From a bacterium (GTDB lineage Bacteria; UBA8248): a stretch of DNA of 64,000 nt. Where the stretch lies: the NCBI GenBank assembly GCA_965213685.1, contig CBDBZY010000024.1, positions 1 to 64,000 of the forward strand, read 5' to 3'. Below the pieces are notes generated by a model, which saw nothing but the letters and a program-made list of their open reading frames with translations, made no database searches and was not told the DNA's origin. Below are positions 17,055-25,905 of this stretch, piece by piece (position 1 is the stretch's first letter; each line of letters opens with the position of its first letter). The translations under genes and the position numbers were made by a program.

Positions 17055-17181
17055 TTTCATTTCGGGCGTCAGAGGTTTCATGGCAGGCGTCGGAGATTCC
17101 CCCCCTGCAAGTCGGGAAGGTTGCATCGGGGAGATTGCATGACAGGCCGGACAATTCCATTTCCCGCATCGGAGGCCCCAC

Positions 17182-17790
17182 ATGAGCCGGATGATTGAAA
17201 TCCTGCAGCCCACCTCGTTCGTTCGCGCGGGGGACCACCCTCTGGCGGAGCGGCCCGGAGACCTTGGCGGACTGCGAATCGGCCTGTTCCACAACAACAA
17301 GCCGAACGCCGACGTTCTGCTGGAGCGCATCGAGGAGCTGTTCGCCCAGGCGGACGAAACGCTCCGGTTCGTCCGCTGGGGGAAGCCGAACCCGACCCTG
17401 CCGGAGGGACGCCTCCGGGAGTTCATCGACCAGGTGGACGTAGCCGTCTGCGCGGTGGGCGACTGAGGGAGCTGCACGTCATGGAGTATCCATGACTCGG
17501 TGGAGATGGAGAAGGCGGGGATTCCGACAGCCACGTTTTGCTCCAGCGAATTCTCCGCCCTCGGGGCGAACGAGCGGGTGGCGCTGGGAATGCCCGGTCT
17601 TCCGATCGTCGTCGTGGCACACCCCGTGGGCGGCATTCCGCCCGCGCAGGCGCGCGCCCTCGGAGGCGGGGCGATGGACGAGGTGCGGCGGATACTCACG
17701 GGCGACGCGGAATCGCTGCGAAGCGAATATCGGGATGTCCGCTACACCCCGCCCCGCAAGACGGTGCGCCACAAGGCGCTGTTCGCATAA
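17182..17790 (+). CDS. UGSC-family selenoprotein (Sec encoded by TGA 17464-17466)
   Basis: ORFs 17182-17466 and 17500-17790 share one frame; readthrough gives AVGD-U-GSCTSWSIHDSVEMEKAGIP; N-terminal NNKPNAD motif. Confidence 0.85.
17467..17496 (+). promoter_or_regulatory. candidate bacterial SECIS hairpin
   Basis: Perfect stem gtcatgga/tccatgac (17478-17496) with G-first loop about 20 nt after the in-frame UGA. Confidence 0.65.
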
Positions 17791-17883
17791 TTCGCACAAG
17801 CGGGCGCGGCGGGTGGATTCGGCGGATACGCGCGAACGGCGGCACCAGGAGGGAGCCATGCGCATGGGCAGGGGATTTTTGGC

Positions 17884-18979
17884 ATGAACGGGGGGGGAGG
17901 ACGCCGCTGCGCCGCCGCAGGGGGAGCGCGTGCGGGTTCGCGACGCGCCCGAGGCCGTGGCGCGCCTGTTCGAGGCGAGAGGATGGGGGGACGGCCCTGC
18001 CCGTCGTTCCGCCCACGCCCGAGCGCGTCGCCAGGATGGCGGCAGGCGCGGGCCCTCGCCCCAGACGAGGAAATCGGGCGGATGCCGCCCCGCCAGGGGG
18101 GTGCTCACGGTCGAGGCACTCGCCGTCAACGCCCGTGATGGCCGGCTGCCTGCCGGCGCATATGCCCGTTCTGGCCGCCGCCGCCCGGGCGATGCTCGCC
18201 CCGGAGTTCTCGCTCCACGCCGTTCAGGCGACCACCCATCCGGCAGCGCCCCTGCTCATCGTGAACGGCCCCGCCGCCGGGGAAATCGGCCTCAACGGGG
18301 AATATGGATGCTTCGCCCCCGGAAACCGGGCGAACGCGACCATCGGCCGCGCGGTGCGGCTGCTCCTCCTGAAACGTCGGAGGCGCAAGCCCCGGCGTGC
18401 TGGATTCGCGCCACGCAGGGCTCGCCCGCGAAATACGCATTCTGCATCGCGGAGAGAACGAGGCGGAATCCCCCTGGGAGCCGTTGCACGTCGAACGCGG
18501 GCTCGACCCCGGGGAGAGTGCCGTGACGCTCGTGGCCTGCGAAGGCCCGCACAACATCAACGACCACGTCAGCCACGGCGCGGAGGGCATTCTCGCCACC
18601 GCCGCCGATACGATGTCCGTCATGGGGAGCAACAATTTCTACCTGCGGGGGGAGCCGCTTCTCGCGCTCGGGCCGGGAGCATGCGGCGACGATAGCGGGA
18701 GACGGCCTCTCGAAAGCGGATGTGAAAAAAAAGAATTTTCGCCCTCGCGAGAAAGCCCGTCCGCCAGCTCAGGCGCGGCGGCATGTGGGGAATGCAGACG
18801 TGGGGGCGAGGAGATATCCCCGAAACGAGGGGGATGACGATTACGAGATTCCGCTGCTCGACGGGCCCGAGAACCTGATCCTCATCGTGGCGGGCGGCGC
18901 AGGCAAGCACTCCTCTTATCTGCCCACCTTCGGCCCGACGCGCTCGGTGACCCGCAGGATTGACGCGCCGGACGCATAA
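17884..18979 (+). CDS. conserved partner protein of UGSC-type proteins (function unknown; several frameshifts)
   Basis: Fragments GWGDG.LPVVPPTPERV, QATTHPAAPLLIVNGP, NRANATIGRAVRL, PAKYAFCIAE, ESPWEPLHVERG, IVAGGAGKHS. Confidence 0.7.
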
Positions 18980-19146
18980 TAACCCCCGCCCGCCCGCCGT
19001 CATGAATCCCGCGCCCTCGCGCTGCGTCCAACGCACAACGATCCCCCCGTTTGCGTTGCCTGGGGTTCCGCCCCCGTGCTAGGTTTCATGCGCAGGCTGG
19101 GAGAGATGGCGATTTCTTTCCGATTGAGACGGGGGGAGGAGAATCC

Positions 19147-19548: not shown

Positions 19549-20404
19549 AGACGGGAAAGTCGATTTCCGATGCGCTCGTCATCGTCAAGGGAGGCGGCGA
19601 CCTCGCCACCGGCGTGGCCCACCGCCTGCGCCGCTCCGGTTTTCCGGTCATGATCACCGAAATAGAAAACCCCACCATGGTCCGGCGCACCGTCTCCTTC
19701 GCCGAGTGTCTCTACTCCGACGAATGGGAGGTGGAGGGCGTGACTGCCGCGAGGGCGAACGGCGGCGCGCTTGCGGAGAAAATCGCCAACGCCCGCGCCC
19801 TGCTCGCGGCGGGTGCCATTCCGGTGGTGGTGGACCCGCGCGCGGAGTCCGTCCCCCGCGTTCGGCCCGTCGTCCTGGTCGACGCGATTCTGGCGAAGCG
19901 GAACCTCGGCACGCGGATGACGGACGCCGAGGTCGTCGTCGGCCTGGGGCCCGGCTTCGCGGCCGGCGTCGATTGCCACGCCGTCATCGAGACCTCCCGC
20001 GGGCATGACCTGGGCCGGGTGATTCTCGAGGGGGCGGCGAAGCCCGACACGGGCGTGCCGGGAGCCATCGGGGGCTACACCACCGAGCGGCTGCTGCGCG
20101 CCCCCCGGCCCGGCGTATTCCGCTCCATCGCCCGGATCGGCGATGTGGTGCGGGCGGGGCAGGCCATCGCCCGGGTGGACGGGGCGGAGGTGACCGCGCG
20201 CATCGACGGCGTCTTGCGCGGCCTCCTCCGGGGACGGCGTCGAGGTGCGCTCCGGCTTCAAGGTGGGCGACGTCGACCCGAGGGCCGACCCCTCCCCATT
20301 GCATGACGATATCCGACAAGTCGCGCGCCATCGCCGGCGGTGCGCTCGAGGCGATCCTGATGTTCCTGTTCGGCGTTCACTCGGCCATGGAGTATGCGAA
20401 TTGA
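19545..20404 (+). CDS. yqeB: selenium-dependent molybdenum cofactor biosynthesis protein YqeB (two apparent frameshifts near 20230 and 20295)
   Basis: KGGGDLATGVAHRL, VRRTVSF, DAILAKRNLGT, GLGPGF, ETSRGHDLGR, ERLLRAP, GFKVGDVDPR, ISDKSRAIAGG. Confidence 0.9.
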
Positions 20405-21285
20405 ATCCTGAAACGCTCACGGAGACAGTGGAGAACGGCGCCTACCGCATCGGACGCAGCGAAATTCCCGTCAACGAATCCACCGGAAACTCCTTCGTCC
20501 CCCCCGCGCAGTTCTACCTGGCCGCGGGCGACGCGCTCGAGCGCATCTCATGGGCGGTGAGCCAGAACCTGCCCGTTCTGCTCGTGGGAGAAACCGGCGT
20601 CGGCAAGACGCTCTCCGTGCGCCATCTCGCCCACATGACCAACAACGGCTTCCGGCGCGTCAACCTGAACGGCATGACCACGGTCGATGAATTCGTGGGC
20701 AAGCTGATGATCAACGAACAGGGCACATACTGGGTGAACGGCATCCTGGTGGATGCGATGGAGTCAGGCGACTGGCTGCTCATCGACGAGATCAACGCAT
20801 GTCTGCCCGAAATCGCCTTCTGCCTGCACAGCCTGCTCGACGATGACCGGATGATCGTCCTCTCGGAGTATGACGGCCGCATCGTCAGGCCCCACCCGCA
20901 CTTTCGGCTCTTCGCCAGCATGAACCCCCATGAGGATCGCAGGTACGGCGGCACCAAGCCCTTGAACGAGGCGCTTCTGGATCGCTTTCCGGTCACCGTG
21001 AAGATGGACTACCTCCCCTTCGAGGCGGAAGTCGAGGTCATCATGCAACAAAGCGGAAACGGCGACGAGGCGCTGGTCAAGCGCATGGTGCGCGTCGGCC
21101 ATGACGTGCGCGAAGCCATGAAAAACGAAAAGGTGTTCTGCACGTTCAGCACCCGCCGCCTGATAGACTGGGCGCGCATGGCGGCGCAGTTCAGCCCCAT
21201 GGAGGCCGCCGTCTCGACCATATTCAGCAAAGTCAACTCTTTCGACGCCAAGGTGCTCGAGGACATCGTGGACAACCACTTCTAG
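20401..21285 (+). CDS. MoxR-clade AAA+ ATPase, CbbQ/NirQ/NorQ type
   Basis: Walker A GETGVGKT, Walker B LLIDEIN, HPHFRLFASMNP, LNEALLDRF, C-terminal STRRL; TTG start overlaps yqeB stop. Confidence 0.88.
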   Translation: MNPETLTETVENGAYRIGRSEIPVNESTGNSFVPPAQFYLAAGDALERISWAVSQNLPVLLVGETGVGKTLSVRHLAHMTNNGFRRVNLNGMTTVDEFVGKLMINEQGTYWVNGILVDAMESGDWLLIDEINACLPEIAFCLHSLLDDDRMIVLSEYDGRIVRPHPHFRLFASMNPHEDRRYGGTKPLNEALLDRFPVTVKMDYLPFEAEVEVIMQQSGNGDEALVKRMVRVGHDVREAMKNEKVFCTFSTRRLIDWARMAAQFSPMEAAVSTIFSKVNSFDAKVLEDIVDNHF

Positions 21286-21299
21286 CCGGGGGATGCGGC

Positions 21300-23069
21300 A
21301 TGGAACGCCGACGCGCCCGCCTCGAAGCGCTCGCCCAGGTGACGGCGCACGACTACGATCTCGCCCTGCTGTTCGGCTCCCAGGGGAAACCCGAGGAGGC
21401 CGCCGTCTGCATCGAGGACCCGGAGAAAACCCTGGCGCGCCTAGGCGGCGACCTCGACGACGAGCGCGTCCTGAGATACCAGAAGGGCATGACGCTCATC
21501 GAGGTGGCCCACAAGCTCCAGGGAACGTTTCGCTGGGCGGGGCGCGCCGTGCTCGCAAACCGCGAGAGGCCGGGTCTTTTCCACCTCTGGCACACGCTCG
21601 AGGACGCCAGGTGCGAAAATCGTCTCGCGGAATCCCTGCCCGGCACCAAAAAGAACTTCCGGGCCTTCATTCGTCCGGCCATCGAGGCCGCCGAGCGGAA
21701 TCACGCGCGCGGAGAGCTCCCCCTGTTTCTCCAGATTCAATGGGGAATCTACCTCGGCGGCATCGGCCAGACGCCCGGCGTCGCCTCGTCAAACCCCGAG
21801 GATTTGCCCGCAGCCTGGTTCGACCCCGTCATCGTCCAGATACTCCAGGGAATCGCGCCGCTGATCGATCGCGCCTGTGCCGCGAAAAACCCCAAAACCA
21901 CCTTCGACTGCGCGAACGAGATGTACGACGCCATCCAGCGATATTTCACCGAAGACCAGCTGGGCGAGATGATGGACGAACAGCAGCTCTCGGAGATTCC
22001 GGAGGAAATTCTCCGGAAGATCGAGAACGAAAGCATCCGGGGGGAGGAGGACGAATCGCTCGAGGCGCTGCACGCGGAGGCACTCGAGGAGGTCGACGAG
22101 GAGGAGGGGGAGCCGGTCGAGCTGACGCCCGAGGAACTCGCCGCCCTCGGGCATTGGGCCTCCCCGTGGTTTGAGCGCGAGGGGAACAAGAAGGAGGTCC
22201 ACCCGACGGCGCAGCATCCCGACGAGCGTACCATCATACTGCCCCCCGAGGGCAAGGCCGAGGAATACGCGGCGATCATCGACAACGCGGGCAGCCACAT
22301 CAAGGTGCTGGCGTGGAAGCTGACGCAGATCATCCAGGAGAGAACCTATACCCGCTTCAGCGGTTCCCATCGCTCCGGCAAGCTGAACCTCCCCAAACTC
22401 TGGAAGCAGCGCCTGGGAAAATTCCATCTCTTCCACCGAAAAGAAGAACCCGAGAAACTCGACGTCTGCTTCACGCTCCTCGTGGACGAGAGCGGCAGCA
22501 TGAACCGCGAGTCGAAATACGTCGCCGCGCGGGAGGCGACCATATTCTTCGCGGAAGTTCTCGACCGGCTGGAGGTGCCCTTCGAGGTGATCGGCTATTC
22601 CACCGAGAGCTCCGAGGCGGCCATGGCGGCGGCCCTGGGACACATCCCCGCGTTCAAGTTCCGGCACATCAGGCACTCTCCGCTCCAGCACCGCATCTAC
22701 AAGGGCTTCGAGGACAGCTTCTCCCAGGTCAGGCATCGGCTCGTCAACATTTATCCGCGCTTCAACAACTGGGACGAGGAACATCTGCTGTTCGCCCACC
22801 GCAGGCTCATGCAGCGGCCGGAGGAGGAGAAGATCATCATCATCACGTCGGACGGCCAGCCCAACGGAGACGCGACCCACCTCGTGAGCACGGTCAACCG
22901 CCTGGAAAAACTCGGCGTCCGGGTCATCGGCGTCGGCGTGGTGGACCCGTTCGTGGAGCAAATCTACCCGAACCACATCGTGGTGCAGGACCTCTCCCAG
23001 CTTTCCACGGAGCTCGTGAACATCTTGAGACGCGAGCTGCTCGGCGGTGCGGAGAGCCGCTCTTGGTAG
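21300..23069 (+). CDS. VWA-domain protein, CobT/NorD/CbbO-like
   Basis: LEDARCE N-terminal motif, acidic linker, SGKLN, MIDAS LVDESGSM and ITSDGQP. Confidence 0.85.
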   Translation: MERRRARLEALAQVTAHDYDLALLFGSQGKPEEAAVCIEDPEKTLARLGGDLDDERVLRYQKGMTLIEVAHKLQGTFRWAGRAVLANRERPGLFHLWHTLEDARCENRLAESLPGTKKNFRAFIRPAIEAAERNHARGELPLFLQIQWGIYLGGIGQTPGVASSNPEDLPAAWFDPVIVQILQGIAPLIDRACAAKNPKTTFDCANEMYDAIQRYFTEDQLGEMMDEQQLSEIPEEILRKIENESIRGEEDESLEALHAEALEEVDEEEGEPVELTPEELAALGHWASPWFEREGNKKEVHPTAQHPDERTIILPPEGKAEEYAAIIDNAGSHIKVLAWKLTQIIQERTYTRFSGSHRSGKLNLPKLWKQRLGKFHLFHRKEEPEKLDVCFTLLVDESGSMNRESKYVAAREATIFFAEVLDRLEVPFEVIGYSTESSEAAMAAALGHIPAFKFRHIRHSPLQHRIYKGFEDSFSQVRHRLVNIYPRFNNWDEEHLLFAHRRLMQRPEEEKIIIITSDGQPNGDATHLVSTVNRLEKLGVRVIGVGVVDPFVEQIYPNHIVVQDLSQLSTELVNILRRELLGGAESRSW

Positions 23070-23899
23070 CGGGCGGGGGCCTCCTCCAGGCGGCGGACAT
23101 CCAGCCGGGCCACGTCGTCGCGGCGGTCGGGGCGGGCGGAAAAACAAGCCTGTTGACGGCGCTCGCCAGAGAGTTTCACGCAGCATCCGGGAAACCCGCC
23201 ATCCTCACGACGACCACCAGGATTTTCGCGCCGCACCCGGAGGAGGGCATCCCGCTGGCACTGGGGGAGGTCGACGCCTTCGCAAGGCATCTCCGCCGTT
23301 GCGTGAACGCGCGCGGAATCTTCTGGCTCGCCCGCCGCCGCGAGGGGAGGACGCCCGTCCCCGGCCAGGCGGGGGAGCACCGGATGAAGCTGGCCGGCTT
23401 CGCGCCGCCGGAAATCGCCGGCCTCCGGCTCGAGGGCGGCCTCGCGCTCATAGAGGCGGATGGCGCGCGGAGGCTGCCCATCAAGGCACCCGGCGCGCAT
23501 GAGCCCGTCCTGCCCGAAAACGCGGACGTCGTACTCGGCCTCGTCGGTCTGGACGCCCTGGGCGCGCCCCTGGACGAAGCGCACGTTTTTCGCCCCGGAC
23601 TGCTCTCCGGGATATGCCGCCTGCCCGTGGGCGCGAAGATAACGGCCGAGTCCGTCGGGAGGCTGTGCGCCCATCCGGAGGGGCTTTTCCGGAAGGCGGG
23701 ACCGCACGCCCGCAAGTGGGTCATCCTGAACAAGGCGGACGCGGAAACCCGGGTGGATACATTCCGAAAAATCGCATATACTATATGGAAGCGGGCCGGG
23801 CCGCCCCATGGCCCGGCGGATGGCGTCCTCGTCACATCGTGCCGCAAGGGCGAATGCAGCGTATTGTTTCGCATGGCGGGGGACGCGCGCGCAGGATGA
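23063..23899 (+). CDS. yqeC: selenium cofactor biosynthesis protein YqeC
   Basis: VGAGGKTSL, LTTTTRI, IEADGARRLPIKAPGAHEP, HPEGLFR, ILNKAD. Confidence 0.88.
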   Translation: MVAGGGLLQAADIQPGHVVAAVGAGGKTSLLTALAREFHAASGKPAILTTTTRIFAPHPEEGIPLALGEVDAFARHLRRCVNARGIFWLARRREGRTPVPGQAGEHRMKLAGFAPPEIAGLRLEGGLALIEADGARRLPIKAPGAHEPVLPENADVVLGLVGLDALGAPLDEAHVFRPGLLSGICRLPVGAKITAESVGRLCAHPEGLFRKAGPHARKWVILNKADAETRVDTFRKIAYTIWKRAGPPHGPADGVLVTSCRKGECSVLFRMAGDARAG

Positions 23900-23921
23900 C
23901 GCACCCCGATGGGAGCCAGGA

Positions 23922-25068
23922 ATGAGCAAAGACGTATTCAGGGAGATGGCCCGCCTCAGAGAAGACGGCCAAACGGGCGCGCTCGCCACCGTCGTGGCGC
24001 GCAAGGGTTCGGCGCCCATGAGCGGCGACGCGAAAATGCTTGTGCGCGAAGACGGCAGCACGGAGGGCACCGTCGGGGGCGGTTGCCTGGAGGCCGAGGT
24101 CTGGGAGACGGCGATGAGCGTTCTGGAGACGGGCGAACCCGAGAAGCTCACCTTCGACCTCACCCAGCAGGAGGCGGAAGACAGCGGGCACATATGCGGC
24201 GGCGTGGTGGAAATACTGGTGGAGCCGTTTCGGGCGTTTCAGCAGGAACTGCTCGACGAGATCAACCAAATCCGCAACCGGGGCGGCAGCGCGGCGCTCG
24301 CCACCATCGTGCAGCCGGGCGCTCTGGAGGTTCCGACCCCGGAGGCCCGAAAAATGCTTTTCCGGCGCGACGGCAGCGCCGTGGGAGAAATTCCGCACTA
24401 TTCGGCGGAGATCTGGGCGGAGAGCACGCAAATCATCCGGCAGGGCAACCCGACCCTTTTGCATTTCAACAGGGACCCCGCGCGCGCGAGGCAAAAAAGG
24501 CCCGCGCCCGGGGAGGCCACGGAGATTTTCGTCGAACCGATTTCCAGCCAGCCCCTCGTCTACATTTTCGGCGGCGGGCACGTATCCTTCTGCGTCGCGC
24601 AGACGGCTTACATCGCCGGCTTCCGGGTCGCGATCGTGGAGGACAGGCCCTCGTTCGCGAACGAGGAGCGCTTCCCGATGGCGGAGGCGTTCTACGTGGG
24701 AGAATTCCCCGATGTTTTCGAGAAAATTCCCGTCGATGAGGCGGACTACATGGCCATCATCACCCGAGGCCACGCGAACGATGAGGTCGTCCTGGAATGG
24801 GCGATGAAAACGAAGGCGCGCTACATCGGGATGATCGGCTCGAAGAGCAAGGTGTTGCTCACGTATCGCCACCTCCAGGACAAGGGCTACGGGAGGGACG
24901 AGCTCATCCGGCGCGTCCACGCGCCCATCGGCCTGGACATCGGCGCCGACACGCCGGGGGAGATCGGGGGTGGCCATCGTCTCGGAGCTCATCCGCTATC
25001 GCCGCCAAGGCGAGGCGAGAGACGGGAGCGTGGGCAGCAAAAGGGTGCGCCTGAGAAGAAGAGCGTAG
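23922..25068 (+). CDS. XdhC/CoxF-family molybdenum hydroxylase maturation factor (frameshift near 24965)
   Basis: LATVVARKGSAP, GTVGGGCLEAEV, ICGG, FGGGHV, TRGH, YIGMIGS, HAPIGLDIGADTP. Confidence 0.9.
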
Positions 25069-25143
25069 TTTTCCCGCCGCAGCGCGCACCCGGGAGGAGC
25101 CCGCCAAAATCCATACGCCCGCAACGCGACCGCTCCCGAAAAC

Positions 25144-25905
25144 GTGAACTATCTCCGCGCGCTCCTGGGGGCGGCGGCGGATTTGCTCATCCCGCCGAAG
25201 TGCCTCCTTTGCCTGGTGCCCATGCGAATCGGCGACCCCCCGCGCCATATGCGCGCCCTGTGCGGACGCCCTGGAGCGGTTCGCGCCCCCCCTGGTGTCC
25301 CATGTGCGGCGCGCCCTTCTCCTCCCAAATCGCCCTCCGCCATTCCCCCGCGCACGTCTGCGCGCGGTGCCAGGAGGATCCCCCGCATTTCGACAGGGCG
25401 CGCGCCCTCGGCGCTTTCGAGGGGTTCCCTGCGAGAGCTGGTGCACATGTTCAAGTTCGAGGGGCTTCACCAAGATTCGCGCGCGAGCTGGCGCCCCCAC
25501 CTCGCCAAACTCGCGGCCGATGAGTTCGGCGTGGACGAGCGGATGGAGAACGTCGTCGTGACGCACGTGCCGATTGACCCGGCGCGCTGGAAAACCCGGG
25601 GCTTCGACCAATCGCTGCTGCTCGCCCTCCGGACGGCGAAGCTCCTGGGCGCACCGCACGCGCATTGCCTGGAGCGCGTGCGCTCCACCCGCTCCCAGAC
25701 GGGATTGTCCGCGCGGGAGAGGCGGCGCAACCTGCGCGGCGTATTCCGGGTCCGCTCCGGCCGCACCCGCCAGCAAATCGAATCGGCCACATGTCTTTTG
25801 ATCGACGACGTCGTCACCACCGGCTCGACCGCCTCGGCGTGCGCCCGGGAGTTGAAAAAGGCGGGCGCCGACGCGGTGTGCCTCCTCACCGTCTGCCGCG
25901 CGTGA
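25144..25905 (+). CDS. ComF-family protein (zinc ribbons plus PRT domain; frameshifted)
   Basis: PPKCLLC, CPMCG, CARC, RGFDQS, ERRRNL, LLIDDVVTTGST. Confidence 0.85.
   Translation: MNYLRALLGAAADLLIPPKCLLCLVPMRIGDPPRHMRALCGRPGAVRAPPGVPCAARPSPPKSPSAIPPRTSARGARRIPRISTGRAPSALSRGSLRELVHMFKFEGLHQDSRASWRPHLAKLAADEFGVDERMENVVVTHVPIDPARWKTRGFDQSLLLALRTAKLLGAPHAHCLERVRSTRSQTGLSARERRRNLRGVFRVRSGRTRQQIESATCLLIDDVVTTGSTASACARELKKAGADAVCLLTVCRA

Follow-up and report, generated by a model that had tools for sequence, protein, structure and literature searches.

A probable UGSC-family selenoprotein with an in-frame TGA codon, a conserved hairpin and a recurrent partner protein

Introduction

Could a TGA codon in the middle of a short bacterial gene be read as selenocysteine (Sec) rather than as a stop, and what would the resulting protein do? 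This question is raised by positions 17182-17790 of contig CBDBZY010000024.1, from a bacterium of the lineage UBA8248. An earlier note on this DNA had proposed a hidden selenoprotein here, with a U-G-S-C motif and, behind it, a hairpin resembling a selenocysteine insertion sequence (SECIS). The whole stretch that was analysed, 64,000 nucleotides (nt) of this contig (C24), is called the window below; the genome to which it belongs (G000) comprises 7.97 Mb in 71 contigs. Judging from the sequence and its relatives, we consider it very probable that a single UGSC-family selenoprotein, 202 residues long, is encoded by 17182-17790, and that the TGA is recoded with the help of a conserved hairpin. 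The gene adds one more member to an already known family; as a selenoprotein it is not new. The family is the "UGSC-containing protein" of Zhang and Gladyshev (2007, PMC1976440; 2008, PMC2398784), and the second paper, on Global Ocean Sampling (GOS) data, gives 255 Sec forms and 21 cysteine (Cys) forms. In a 2026 review (PMC13188914), UGSC still stands among the uncharacterised selenoprotein families, in agreement with the earlier note, which had called its function unknown. The word "hidden" is therefore right in one respect and wrong in another: gene callers split the gene, but the family already has curated Pfam and NCBIfam models and appears in reviews (PMC13188914).

One gene across the TGA codon

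The ATG at 17182-17184 and the TAA at 17788-17790 share one frame with a single internal TGA at 17464-17466. Under translation table 11, the region yields two open reading frames (ORFs), 17182..17466 (94 amino acids, aa) and 17500..17790 (96 aa, GTG start), which bears out the description of two short ORFs in one frame split by this TGA. When TGA is translated as U, a product of 202 residues is obtained with ...AVGD-U95-GSC98-TSWSIHD..., just as the earlier note had read it (VGD-U-GSCTSWSIHD). The features of the locus are the following.

17171-17175, + strand: Shine-Dalgarno-like GGAGG with a 6-nt spacer to the ATG, from reading of the sequence
17182-17790, + strand: predicted UGSC-family selenoprotein gene, 202 codons plus TAA, with Sec as codon 95
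17464-17466, + strand: in-frame TGA as putative Sec (U95, U-G-S-C motif), from column conservation, read contigs and paralogs
17478-17496, + strand: bacterial SECIS-type hairpin, 8-bp stem with loop GUA, from the minimum-free-energy fold and covariation

The two ORFs of table 11 are also what would be seen if the TGA were a true stop, so that two short genes or a nonsense-inactivated gene were present and the hairpin were incidental. We regard this as highly improbable. The high third-position GC content runs on past the TGA in the same frame (0.85, 0.86, 0.80 and 0.75 in 300-nt windows from 17150 to 17600), and the protein is conserved on both sides of the TGA: in tblastn searches, 13 of the 14 closest relatives span residues 1-202 through the TGA with 85-89% identity, and the 14th spans residues 5-202. 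Moreover, the downstream ORF would need the GTG located 34 nt past the TGA, for which no ribosome-binding motif was seen by eye, no formal search being made. The window has 11 places, this one included, with well-coding stretches on both sides of a single TGA, and a Cys near the TGA (UxxC or CxxU) occurs at the UGSC site only.

The read-through protein passes the curated cut-offs of both family models, which upholds its assignment to UGSC. Pfam PF24696 (UGSC) is matched with 154.1 bits (cut-off 25) by residues 6-173 on model positions 1-171 of 172, and NCBIfam NF041046, "UGSC family (seleno)protein", with 131.5 bits (cut-off 125) by residues 30-172 on positions 2-146 of 147. The C-terminal tail of 30 residues lies outside the family models, whose matches end at residue 172-173 of 202.

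The column of the TGA is occupied by Cys in other forms, which is difficult to reconcile with a true stop. A word-indexed search of 5.8 billion proteins gave 10 relatives of the read-through protein, and all 8 full-length database homologs (alignment A1) have G-D-C-G-S-C at this column. Among 55 related genomic loci, the codon is TGA in 28 and TGC or TGT in 25, while the motif search came back empty in 2. The 28 TGA loci consist of the 14 closest relatives, all metagenome-assembled genomes and several of them labelled Nitrospinota, together with 14 labelled Betaproteobacteria, Binatia, Chloroflexota, Methylomirabilota and others; the 25 TGC/TGT loci belong to haloarchaea and Actinomycetota. 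The Cys or Sec that the earlier note expected in homologs is thus present, and across 105 aligned UGSC members C95 is found in at least 90%, as is C98.

Gene callers do split such genes, as had been supposed: the nearest database proteins (P0012, P0013 and P0004) are pieces from either side of the TGA. An exhaustive phmmer search gave 873 cluster representatives at E <= 0.001, and its top two are the 94-aa and 96-aa pieces that flank the TGA; P0012 (94 aa) matches residues 1-94 and P0013 (96 aa) matches residues 107-202. A relative of 86% identity, the 120-aa P0004, stops at ...AVGD, so the gene caller cut this protein at its own TGA. For annotation, the locus should accordingly be given as one 202-residue selenoprotein, not as two hypothetical peptides.

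A conserved hairpin behind the TGA codon

The hairpin consists of GTCATGGA (17478-17485), the loop GTA (17486-17488) and TCCATGAC (17489-17496), which form a perfect stem of 8 bp. Its stem begins 11 nt past the last UGA base and the loop G is the 20th base past the UGA; the perfect stem and the G at the loop start are as first described, and the distance of about 20 nt fits the loop G, with the stem at 11 nt.

Three observations weigh against a recoding role of this hairpin. The folding energy of the 76-nt stretch is ordinary (z = -0.59; 56 of 200 shuffles equal or better), a point that would favour a true stop. A perfect 8-bp hairpin lies 5-25 nt downstream at 5 of the 622 TGA triplets in the window (about 1%). 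An Rfam scan of 17100-17900 at E <= 10 gave no bacterial SECIS family, only chance-level hits to mir-639 and scr5239. Given the ordinary energy and this background, the hairpin in a single sequence is weak evidence, and its weight comes from conservation and covariation.

The hairpin is present in the same place in all 29 Sec forms (the window and 28 loci). In the ungapped alignment of these forms (A2, 27 distinct rows), 99.1% of cells contain standard pairs. Compensatory changes on both sides were found in three of the eight pairs: one has A-U in 11 rows and G-C in 16, one has G-C in 24 and C-G in 3, and one changes from G-C to A-U; two further pairs vary through G-U wobble only. None of 500 shuffles reached the covariation score, and pairing falls to 18-42% when the partner strand is slid by 1-3 columns. 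In the loops of the Sec forms, the first two positions are always G and U, and the third may be any base. The switch from A-U to G-C is made by two synonymous third-position changes (TCA/TCG and CAT/CAC), and consequently it cannot be put down to constraint on the protein.

The columns of the hairpin were compared in 23 Cys forms as a control. Pairing there amounts to 62.0% of cells and is hardly lower, at 58.2%, after a slide of -3, which means that these forms have no specific helix. The SECIS-like hairpin of the earlier note therefore stands, kept in every Sec form, with compensatory changes among them, and not kept in the Cys forms. Among the haloarchaeal Cys forms, L046 (L046:4229-4297) has a full 9-bp stem with the loop CGA instead of GUN, and in the same region of L042, L043 and L045 a stem of 7 bp encloses a loop of 5 nt; no such relic was found in the actinobacterial Cys forms. 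The haloarchaeal relics may mark a recent conversion from Sec to Cys after transfer from bacteria.

Paralogs and distribution

Six UGSC genes are present in the genome. Every one of them has a single TGA, always at this column, and a hairpin equally far behind it. Five of them have U-G-S-C, and the one at C5:79360-79866 (- strand) has H-U-G-S-S. A survey of 51 genomes of the phylum found the family in 43, and in the taxonomic family of the window it occurs in 41 of 41 other genomes with 2-9 copies each. All 150 matches listed have exactly one TGA, and there are 89 further matches beyond those listed. A TGA at the same column in 28 loci of several phyla, together with about 150 listed lineage matches that contain one TGA each, again argues against a true stop.

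A maximum-likelihood tree was built from 62 UGSC sequences, 37 with Sec and 25 with Cys (L072, L078 and L077 were omitted for having no motif or no sequence). It requires at least three changes between Sec and Cys, and the window copy is located in a clade with the 14 relatives that has 100/100 support. In three betaproteobacterial loci (L062:822, L065:7397 and L068:5248), a second UGSC paralog lies some 3 kb away; it is divergent and has G-D-U-G-A-C. As for the genome itself, 7.97 Mb compares with 2.9-4.6 Mb in 22 other surveyed genomes of the genus, six UGSC genes compare with 7-8 in most of these, and the assembly is rated 3.68% contaminated; the bin may be unusual or composite.

Selenocysteine machinery, sequence errors and reassignment

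Then, does the genome contain the means of inserting Sec? All four genes that the earlier note had named for a check were found. The selA match scores 501.6 bits, selB adjoins selA with 369.8 bits (cut-off 242), there is one tRNA-Sec (selC; 78.6 bits, anticodon TCA), and selD scores 172 bits (cut-off 125) at C31:~101000-102200 (- strand). The selD gene, too, is of the Sec type: close to the N-terminus, the U of its G-G-U-G-S-K is an in-frame TGA.

The TGA could alternatively be a sequencing or assembly error for TGC or TGT, or a codon for an ordinary amino acid genome-wide. In favour of an error, the assembly has 13 spurious inserted bases in the 1.1 kb just downstream, within the following gene.

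17884-18979, + strand: gene of about 360 aa for a partner protein, limits approximate, from tblastn; frame interrupted by 13 inserted bases, which are assembly errors

When paralogous partners are used in tblastn, the window partner is found as two pieces in different frames (17997-18356 and 18373-18675), whereas its orthologs in 14 close relatives each give one unbroken match. Compared with the intact orthologs, the gene has about 12 extra single bases, mostly in homopolymer runs. The same bases are left out in the Logan contigs of runs X1, X2 and X3 and partly in those of X5; X1 and X2 span 17100-19100 with no other letter and 13 gaps, all between 17890 and ~18818. Since read-based contigs do not have the extra bases, the breaks in the partner gene are errors of the record and not pseudogenisation. 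The selD gene is also broken up in the assembly (C31:101000-102400). Its frame switches at least four times, always where C or G is repeated, which is a point against a working Sec pathway as recorded; by analogy with the partner gene, these switches are most likely homopolymer assembly errors too. A broken partner gene and a broken selD would also suit a true stop, but the neighbouring breaks are insertions absent from the read-based contigs. Apparent pseudogenes in this assembly, such as these two, should be distrusted in view of its many single-base homopolymer insertions.

At the TGA itself the situation is different. The contigs of four runs from two studies (X1, X2 and X3 from one, X5 from another) cover 17464-17466 with no other letter, and inside 17182-17790 they have no indel, the sole other letter being a synonymous G>A at 17583 in X5. 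The TGC or TGT in reads that would have spoken for an error was accordingly not seen in these contigs. The best-matching run may be the sample from which the window was assembled, so independent support for the TGA is given by the second study and by the 14 separately assembled relatives, which also have TGA. Among the public runs listed for this stretch, none was of RNA. The errors found are insertions, never substitutions. With regard to reassignment, three of the six UGSC paralogs terminate in TGA, which means that TGA is not reassigned genome-wide, and a dedicated tRNA-Sec is present together with selA and selB. An error or a reassignment is thus the least probable reading of all, and recoding of the TGA as Sec remains by far the preferred one. 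By the established bacterial mechanism, SelB-GTP with Sec-tRNA(Sec) would bind the hairpin on the translating mRNA, Sec would be delivered to the UGA at codon 95, and the ribosome would continue to the TAA at 17788.

A partner protein beside UGSC

What could be the role of such a protein? A clue may be found in the gene next to it. Beside three of the paralogs lies an ORF of 344-364 residues, and these ORFs are mutually homologous. Even when thresholds were relaxed, their product had no match in Pfam or NCBIfam, and it contains the motifs GW[ST]DGLPV[VI]PPT, NAVMAGC and RANATIGRA, a nearly invariant Cys79 and many invariant polar residues. In tblastn searches the partner was found beside UGSC in all 54 testable loci (54 of 55; the 55th, L077, ends two bases past the UGSC match), in most cases immediately downstream and on its strand; in L060 and L073 it stands immediately upstream. 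In the Natrinema locus (L043), the two genes share an ATGA overlap. The genome has 11 partner places, and every UGSC gene (6 of 6) has one at a distance of about 20 nt to 2.6 kb. Three to four tandem partner copies (C13:27586-31801, + strand) lie 2.5-7 kb upstream of one UGSC paralog; they adjoin genes for a molybdenum hydroxylase large subunit, an enoyl-CoA (coenzyme A) hydratase, a sulfatase and an acyl-CoA dehydrogenase. The second betaproteobacterial paralogs described above are each near another partner copy.

The two proteins are also found as one. Fused proteins of 408-591 aa consist of a UGSC domain followed by a partner domain; in one fused database protein, P0046, the second Cys is missing (G-H-C-G-A-S-S), as in the C5 paralog. 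A fusion of UGSC with a domain called "Unknown_1" is mentioned by Zhang and Gladyshev (2008, PMC2398784), and the sequence supplement of that paper contains a read that leads from the UGSC domain straight to the partner motif GWTDGLPVVPPT. Therefore, the UGSC-partner fusion is already present in the 2008 GOS data, and "Unknown_1" is likely the partner domain.

The partner family is large, with at least 7,454 homologs (7,454 of 8,000 scored candidates at E <= 0.001), which have no Pfam domain apart from the fusions; among the 120 homologs listed, none has a name beyond "hypothetical". Its AlphaFold2 model is of good quality (predicted local distance difference test, pLDDT, 87.9; predicted template modelling score, pTM, 0.89). 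A Foldseek search with this model gave nothing at E <= 0.001, the best match being class I fumarate hydratase (template modelling score, TM, 0.24-0.30; root-mean-square deviation about 16), and in a VIA search of 48,161 chains the highest Z was 5.5, with no chain at Z >= 8. In the ESM Atlas the partner falls among unnamed clusters, one of which has PF24696 in 16% of its members and one of which has the automatic name "thiol-disulfide oxidoreductase family protein", a lead only. Our literature search found no paper that gives the function of UGSC or describes its adjacency to the partner.

Based on this adjacency in every testable locus, the fusions in some genomes, the nearly invariant Cys and the invariant polar residues, it seems rather likely from the sequences that a two-part enzyme exists in which UGSC carries the selenol and the downstream protein of about 360 residues is the other part. 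There is another way to see UGSC, supposed in the literature, namely as a genuine selenoprotein that works as a free-standing thioredoxin-like thiol/selenol oxidoreductase in general redox buffering or peroxide defence, with the partner merely one of its clients. Two partner copies without a nearby UGSC gene (C3:211021-212046 and C3:228076-229107, both on the - strand) tell against the two-part enzyme and would suit a free-standing protein. The first of them lies directly downstream of a gene of the AhpD/CMD family (PF02627), to which CxxU selenoproteins also belong. The automatic "oxidoreductase" name near the partner, for what such a lead is worth, fits as well, and so does the general knowledge that a UxxC at the N-terminus of a helix is typical of redox-active dithiol or selenol proteins. 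However, a mere client would hardly be expected beside UGSC in 54 of 54 testable loci or in recurrent fusions, and six UGSC genes with 11 partner places fit substrate-specific enzymes better than one general reductant. In view of this and of the structural comparison below, a free-standing oxidoreductase appears unlikely.

Fold and probable kinship with selenoprotein B

The AlphaFold2 model of UGSC (pLDDT 93.3, pTM 0.86) displays a doubly wound alpha/beta sheet with five strand-helix units in order, in which Sec95 lies between the strand 87-93 and the helix 96-111 and Cys98 is located one turn on. The 50 best rows from Foldseek contain flavodoxin, azoreductase, Arf and B12-domain-like chains (TM 0.30-0.47), and the 50 best rows from VIA contain Rossmann, flavodoxin and periplasmic-binding-like chains in a flat list (Z 8.8-11.1). 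Such matches point to common architecture only. No thioredoxin-fold chain was recognised among the 50 best rows of either search, although lower rows or an unlisted family may differ. A "Trx-like fold" of UGSC was proposed in PMC2398784, and the fold searches with the predicted model do not support it. Together with the five strand-helix units, this counts against the free-standing thioredoxin-like protein, without being an exclusion. By sequence, the Protein Data Bank gave nothing below E 0.66 for the UGSC profile and nothing below E 0.34 for a PrdB-like profile.

More specific relatives come from sequence profiles. Of 105 UGSC members compared with NCBIfam, 43 match GrdB (TIGR01917) at E <= 0.05 (best E 2.6e-5), and further matches to selenoprotein B are GrdF with 20, TIGR01918 with 17, PrdB with 11 and GrdH with 11, while any unrelated family is matched by at most two members. 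The genome also has short genes for three PrdB-like (PF07355) selenoproteins, in which a single TGA lies in frame within U-x-L-C:

C39:26958-27341, + strand: PrdB-like short selenoprotein gene
C44:127332-127733, - strand: PrdB-like short selenoprotein gene
C33:53792-54181, + strand: PrdB-like short selenoprotein gene

The database relatives of these genes are mostly 167-aa fragments truncated at the TGA. The three genes themselves have Sec regions of the form ...U-P-L-C-x-R-S...E-K-A-G-I-P-T-V, whose spacing matches that of U-G-S-C...E-K-A-G-I-P-T-A in the window protein. When the UGSC profile (A3) was compared by hhalign with a six-sequence PrdB-like profile (A8, from which the PrdB-like P0339 was excluded as frame-shifted in A7), a probability of 92.3% and an E of 5.5e-7 were obtained over 81 columns; residues 83-173 of UGSC align with 159-241 of the PrdB-like profile, U95 falls on U170 and C98 on C173. 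As a negative control, the partner profile against the PrdB-like profile gave a probability of 0.4%.

Several results speak against this kinship. The window protein alone (P0001) matches TIGR01917 weakly (15.6 bits, E 0.0059; cut-off 602.2), the UGSC profile against a single PrdB-like sequence reaches a probability of only 25%, and the alignment with selenoprotein B covers only the C-terminal half of UGSC, with just six sequences in the PrdB-like profile. On balance, the profile matches make it most likely that the half of UGSC with the Sec and the corresponding region of selenoprotein B are homologous. By sequence, UGSC is not a member of the GRDB family itself, because its scores fall well short of the cut-offs and it lacks a counterpart of the N-terminal domain: TIGR01918 gives 10.6 bits against 65.45, PF07355 gave no match at E <= 1, and the N-terminal domain of PrdB/GrdB (about 160 residues) leaves UGSC residues 1-82 unmatched in the hhalign alignment. 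The sequence relatives of UGSC are nevertheless the selenoprotein B proteins, that is, catalytic subunits, which is a further point against a free-standing oxidoreductase.

A possible two-part enzyme and its neighbourhood

If UGSC and its partner form one enzyme, then by analogy with PrdB, Sec95 would attack a substrate held by the partner, Cys98, where present, would resolve the adduct to a selenenyl-sulfide, and a thiol reductant (cellular thiols) would regenerate the enzyme. We put this scheme of attack, resolution and recycling forward as tentative and somewhat doubtful. The paralog at C5:79360 has no Cys three residues past the Sec, so a selenenyl-sulfide with Cys98 cannot be universal, and this tells against the scheme in its general form.

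The neighbouring genes give some hints at the substrate. In the window, two acyl-CoA dehydrogenases are found upstream of UGSC and RidA downstream. RidA and a TetR regulator recur in close relatives only (12 and 10 loci), and elsewhere CoA-transferase III recurs in 5 loci and enoyl-CoA hydratase, acyl-CoA ligase and LigB dioxygenase in 4 each; IclR regulators occur in 10 actinobacterial loci. This census was based on single-linkage clustering of ORFs of at least 100 aa from 61 loci, in which the clusters present in at least 4 loci were used and 29 representatives were annotated. It is polluted by antisense ORFs of GC-rich genomes, and UGSC and the partner, together with the antisense shadows of both, ended up in two giant clusters of 254 and 223 ORFs. 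No thioredoxin reductase was found among the 29 annotated representatives. Such neighbours (acyl-CoA dehydrogenases, enoyl-CoA hydratase, CoA-transferase III, acyl-CoA ligase and RidA) weakly suggest the catabolism of small organic acids or CoA esters. Against this, there is no widely shared neighbour beyond the partner, and the CoA-related genes occur in only 4-5 of the 61 loci each, so the substrate guess is weak.

Another group of genes lies 5 kb from UGSC in the window: YqeC (PF19842) and XdhC/CoxI-family genes at 22313-25523 (+ strand), which are preceded by a MoxR/CbbQ-type AAA ATPase (20245-21285) and a CobT-like VWA protein (21300-23069). This set, we assume, resembles the accessory genes of selenium-dependent molybdenum hydroxylases.

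Seen as a whole, the UGSC-partner pairs look like a catabolic enzyme family with differing substrates. Put most fully, and as a possibility to which we give somewhat less than even chances, UGSC and its partner may be the two subunits of an undescribed selenoenzyme family. In it, UGSC would provide a selenol module derived from the Sec domain of selenoprotein B, and the partner, with a fold that has no solved relative, would be the catalytic or substrate-binding module. In the reaction, Sec would initiate the reductive cleavage of a bond in small organic acids or amines, the enzyme would be recycled by way of a selenenyl-sulfide, and the family would have radiated into substrate-specific pairs. 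If this is true, it would be the first function for one of the commonest aquatic selenoproteins; the 255 Sec sequences in the GOS paper (PMC2398784) place UGSC among the most abundant selenoprotein families in aquatic metagenomes. The invariable partner, the homology to selenoprotein B and the natural Cys-form pairs, which exist in the cultivable, non-pathogenic organisms Halorubrum, Natrinema, Microbacterium and Nonomuraea, turn an "unknown redox protein" into a tractable experiment.

Comparison with known systems

Within the UGSC family, the window protein is alike in the U-G-S-C motif, the length class, the existence of Sec and Cys forms and the SECIS hairpin straight after the UGA, and there is no family-defining difference. 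The traits of this genome's own are the six paralogs, one of them with U-G-S-S, and the C-terminal tail of 30 residues.

Compared with the bacterial SECIS (fdhF type; bSECIS consensus), the window hairpin differs in its loop of only 3 nt, in an upper stem without a bulged U and in having no convincing lower stem, whereas the betaproteobacterial UGSC relatives have a long lower stem that takes in the UGA itself. It is alike in that the loop here always begins with G-U, and a common feature named in the Sargasso Sea paper (PMC1088965) is counted as a likeness to the window hairpin.

The comparison with selenoprotein B (PrdB; GrdB/GrdF/GrdH; PF07355, TIGR01917, TIGR01918, TIGR04483) bears most directly on the possible function. 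UGSC is unlike these proteins in being without their N-terminal part of about 160 residues and in scoring far under the family cut-offs, and its partner resembles neither any Pfam or NCBIfam family nor the PrdB-like profile. Selenoprotein B needs a second, larger protein, the pyruvoyl-bearing proprotein PrdA or GrdE, and UGSC would likewise need its larger partner. UGSC is like selenoprotein B in its UxxC with Sec first, in the hydrophobic strand before the Sec, and in the E-x-x-G-[IV]-P-T that follows at the same spacing.

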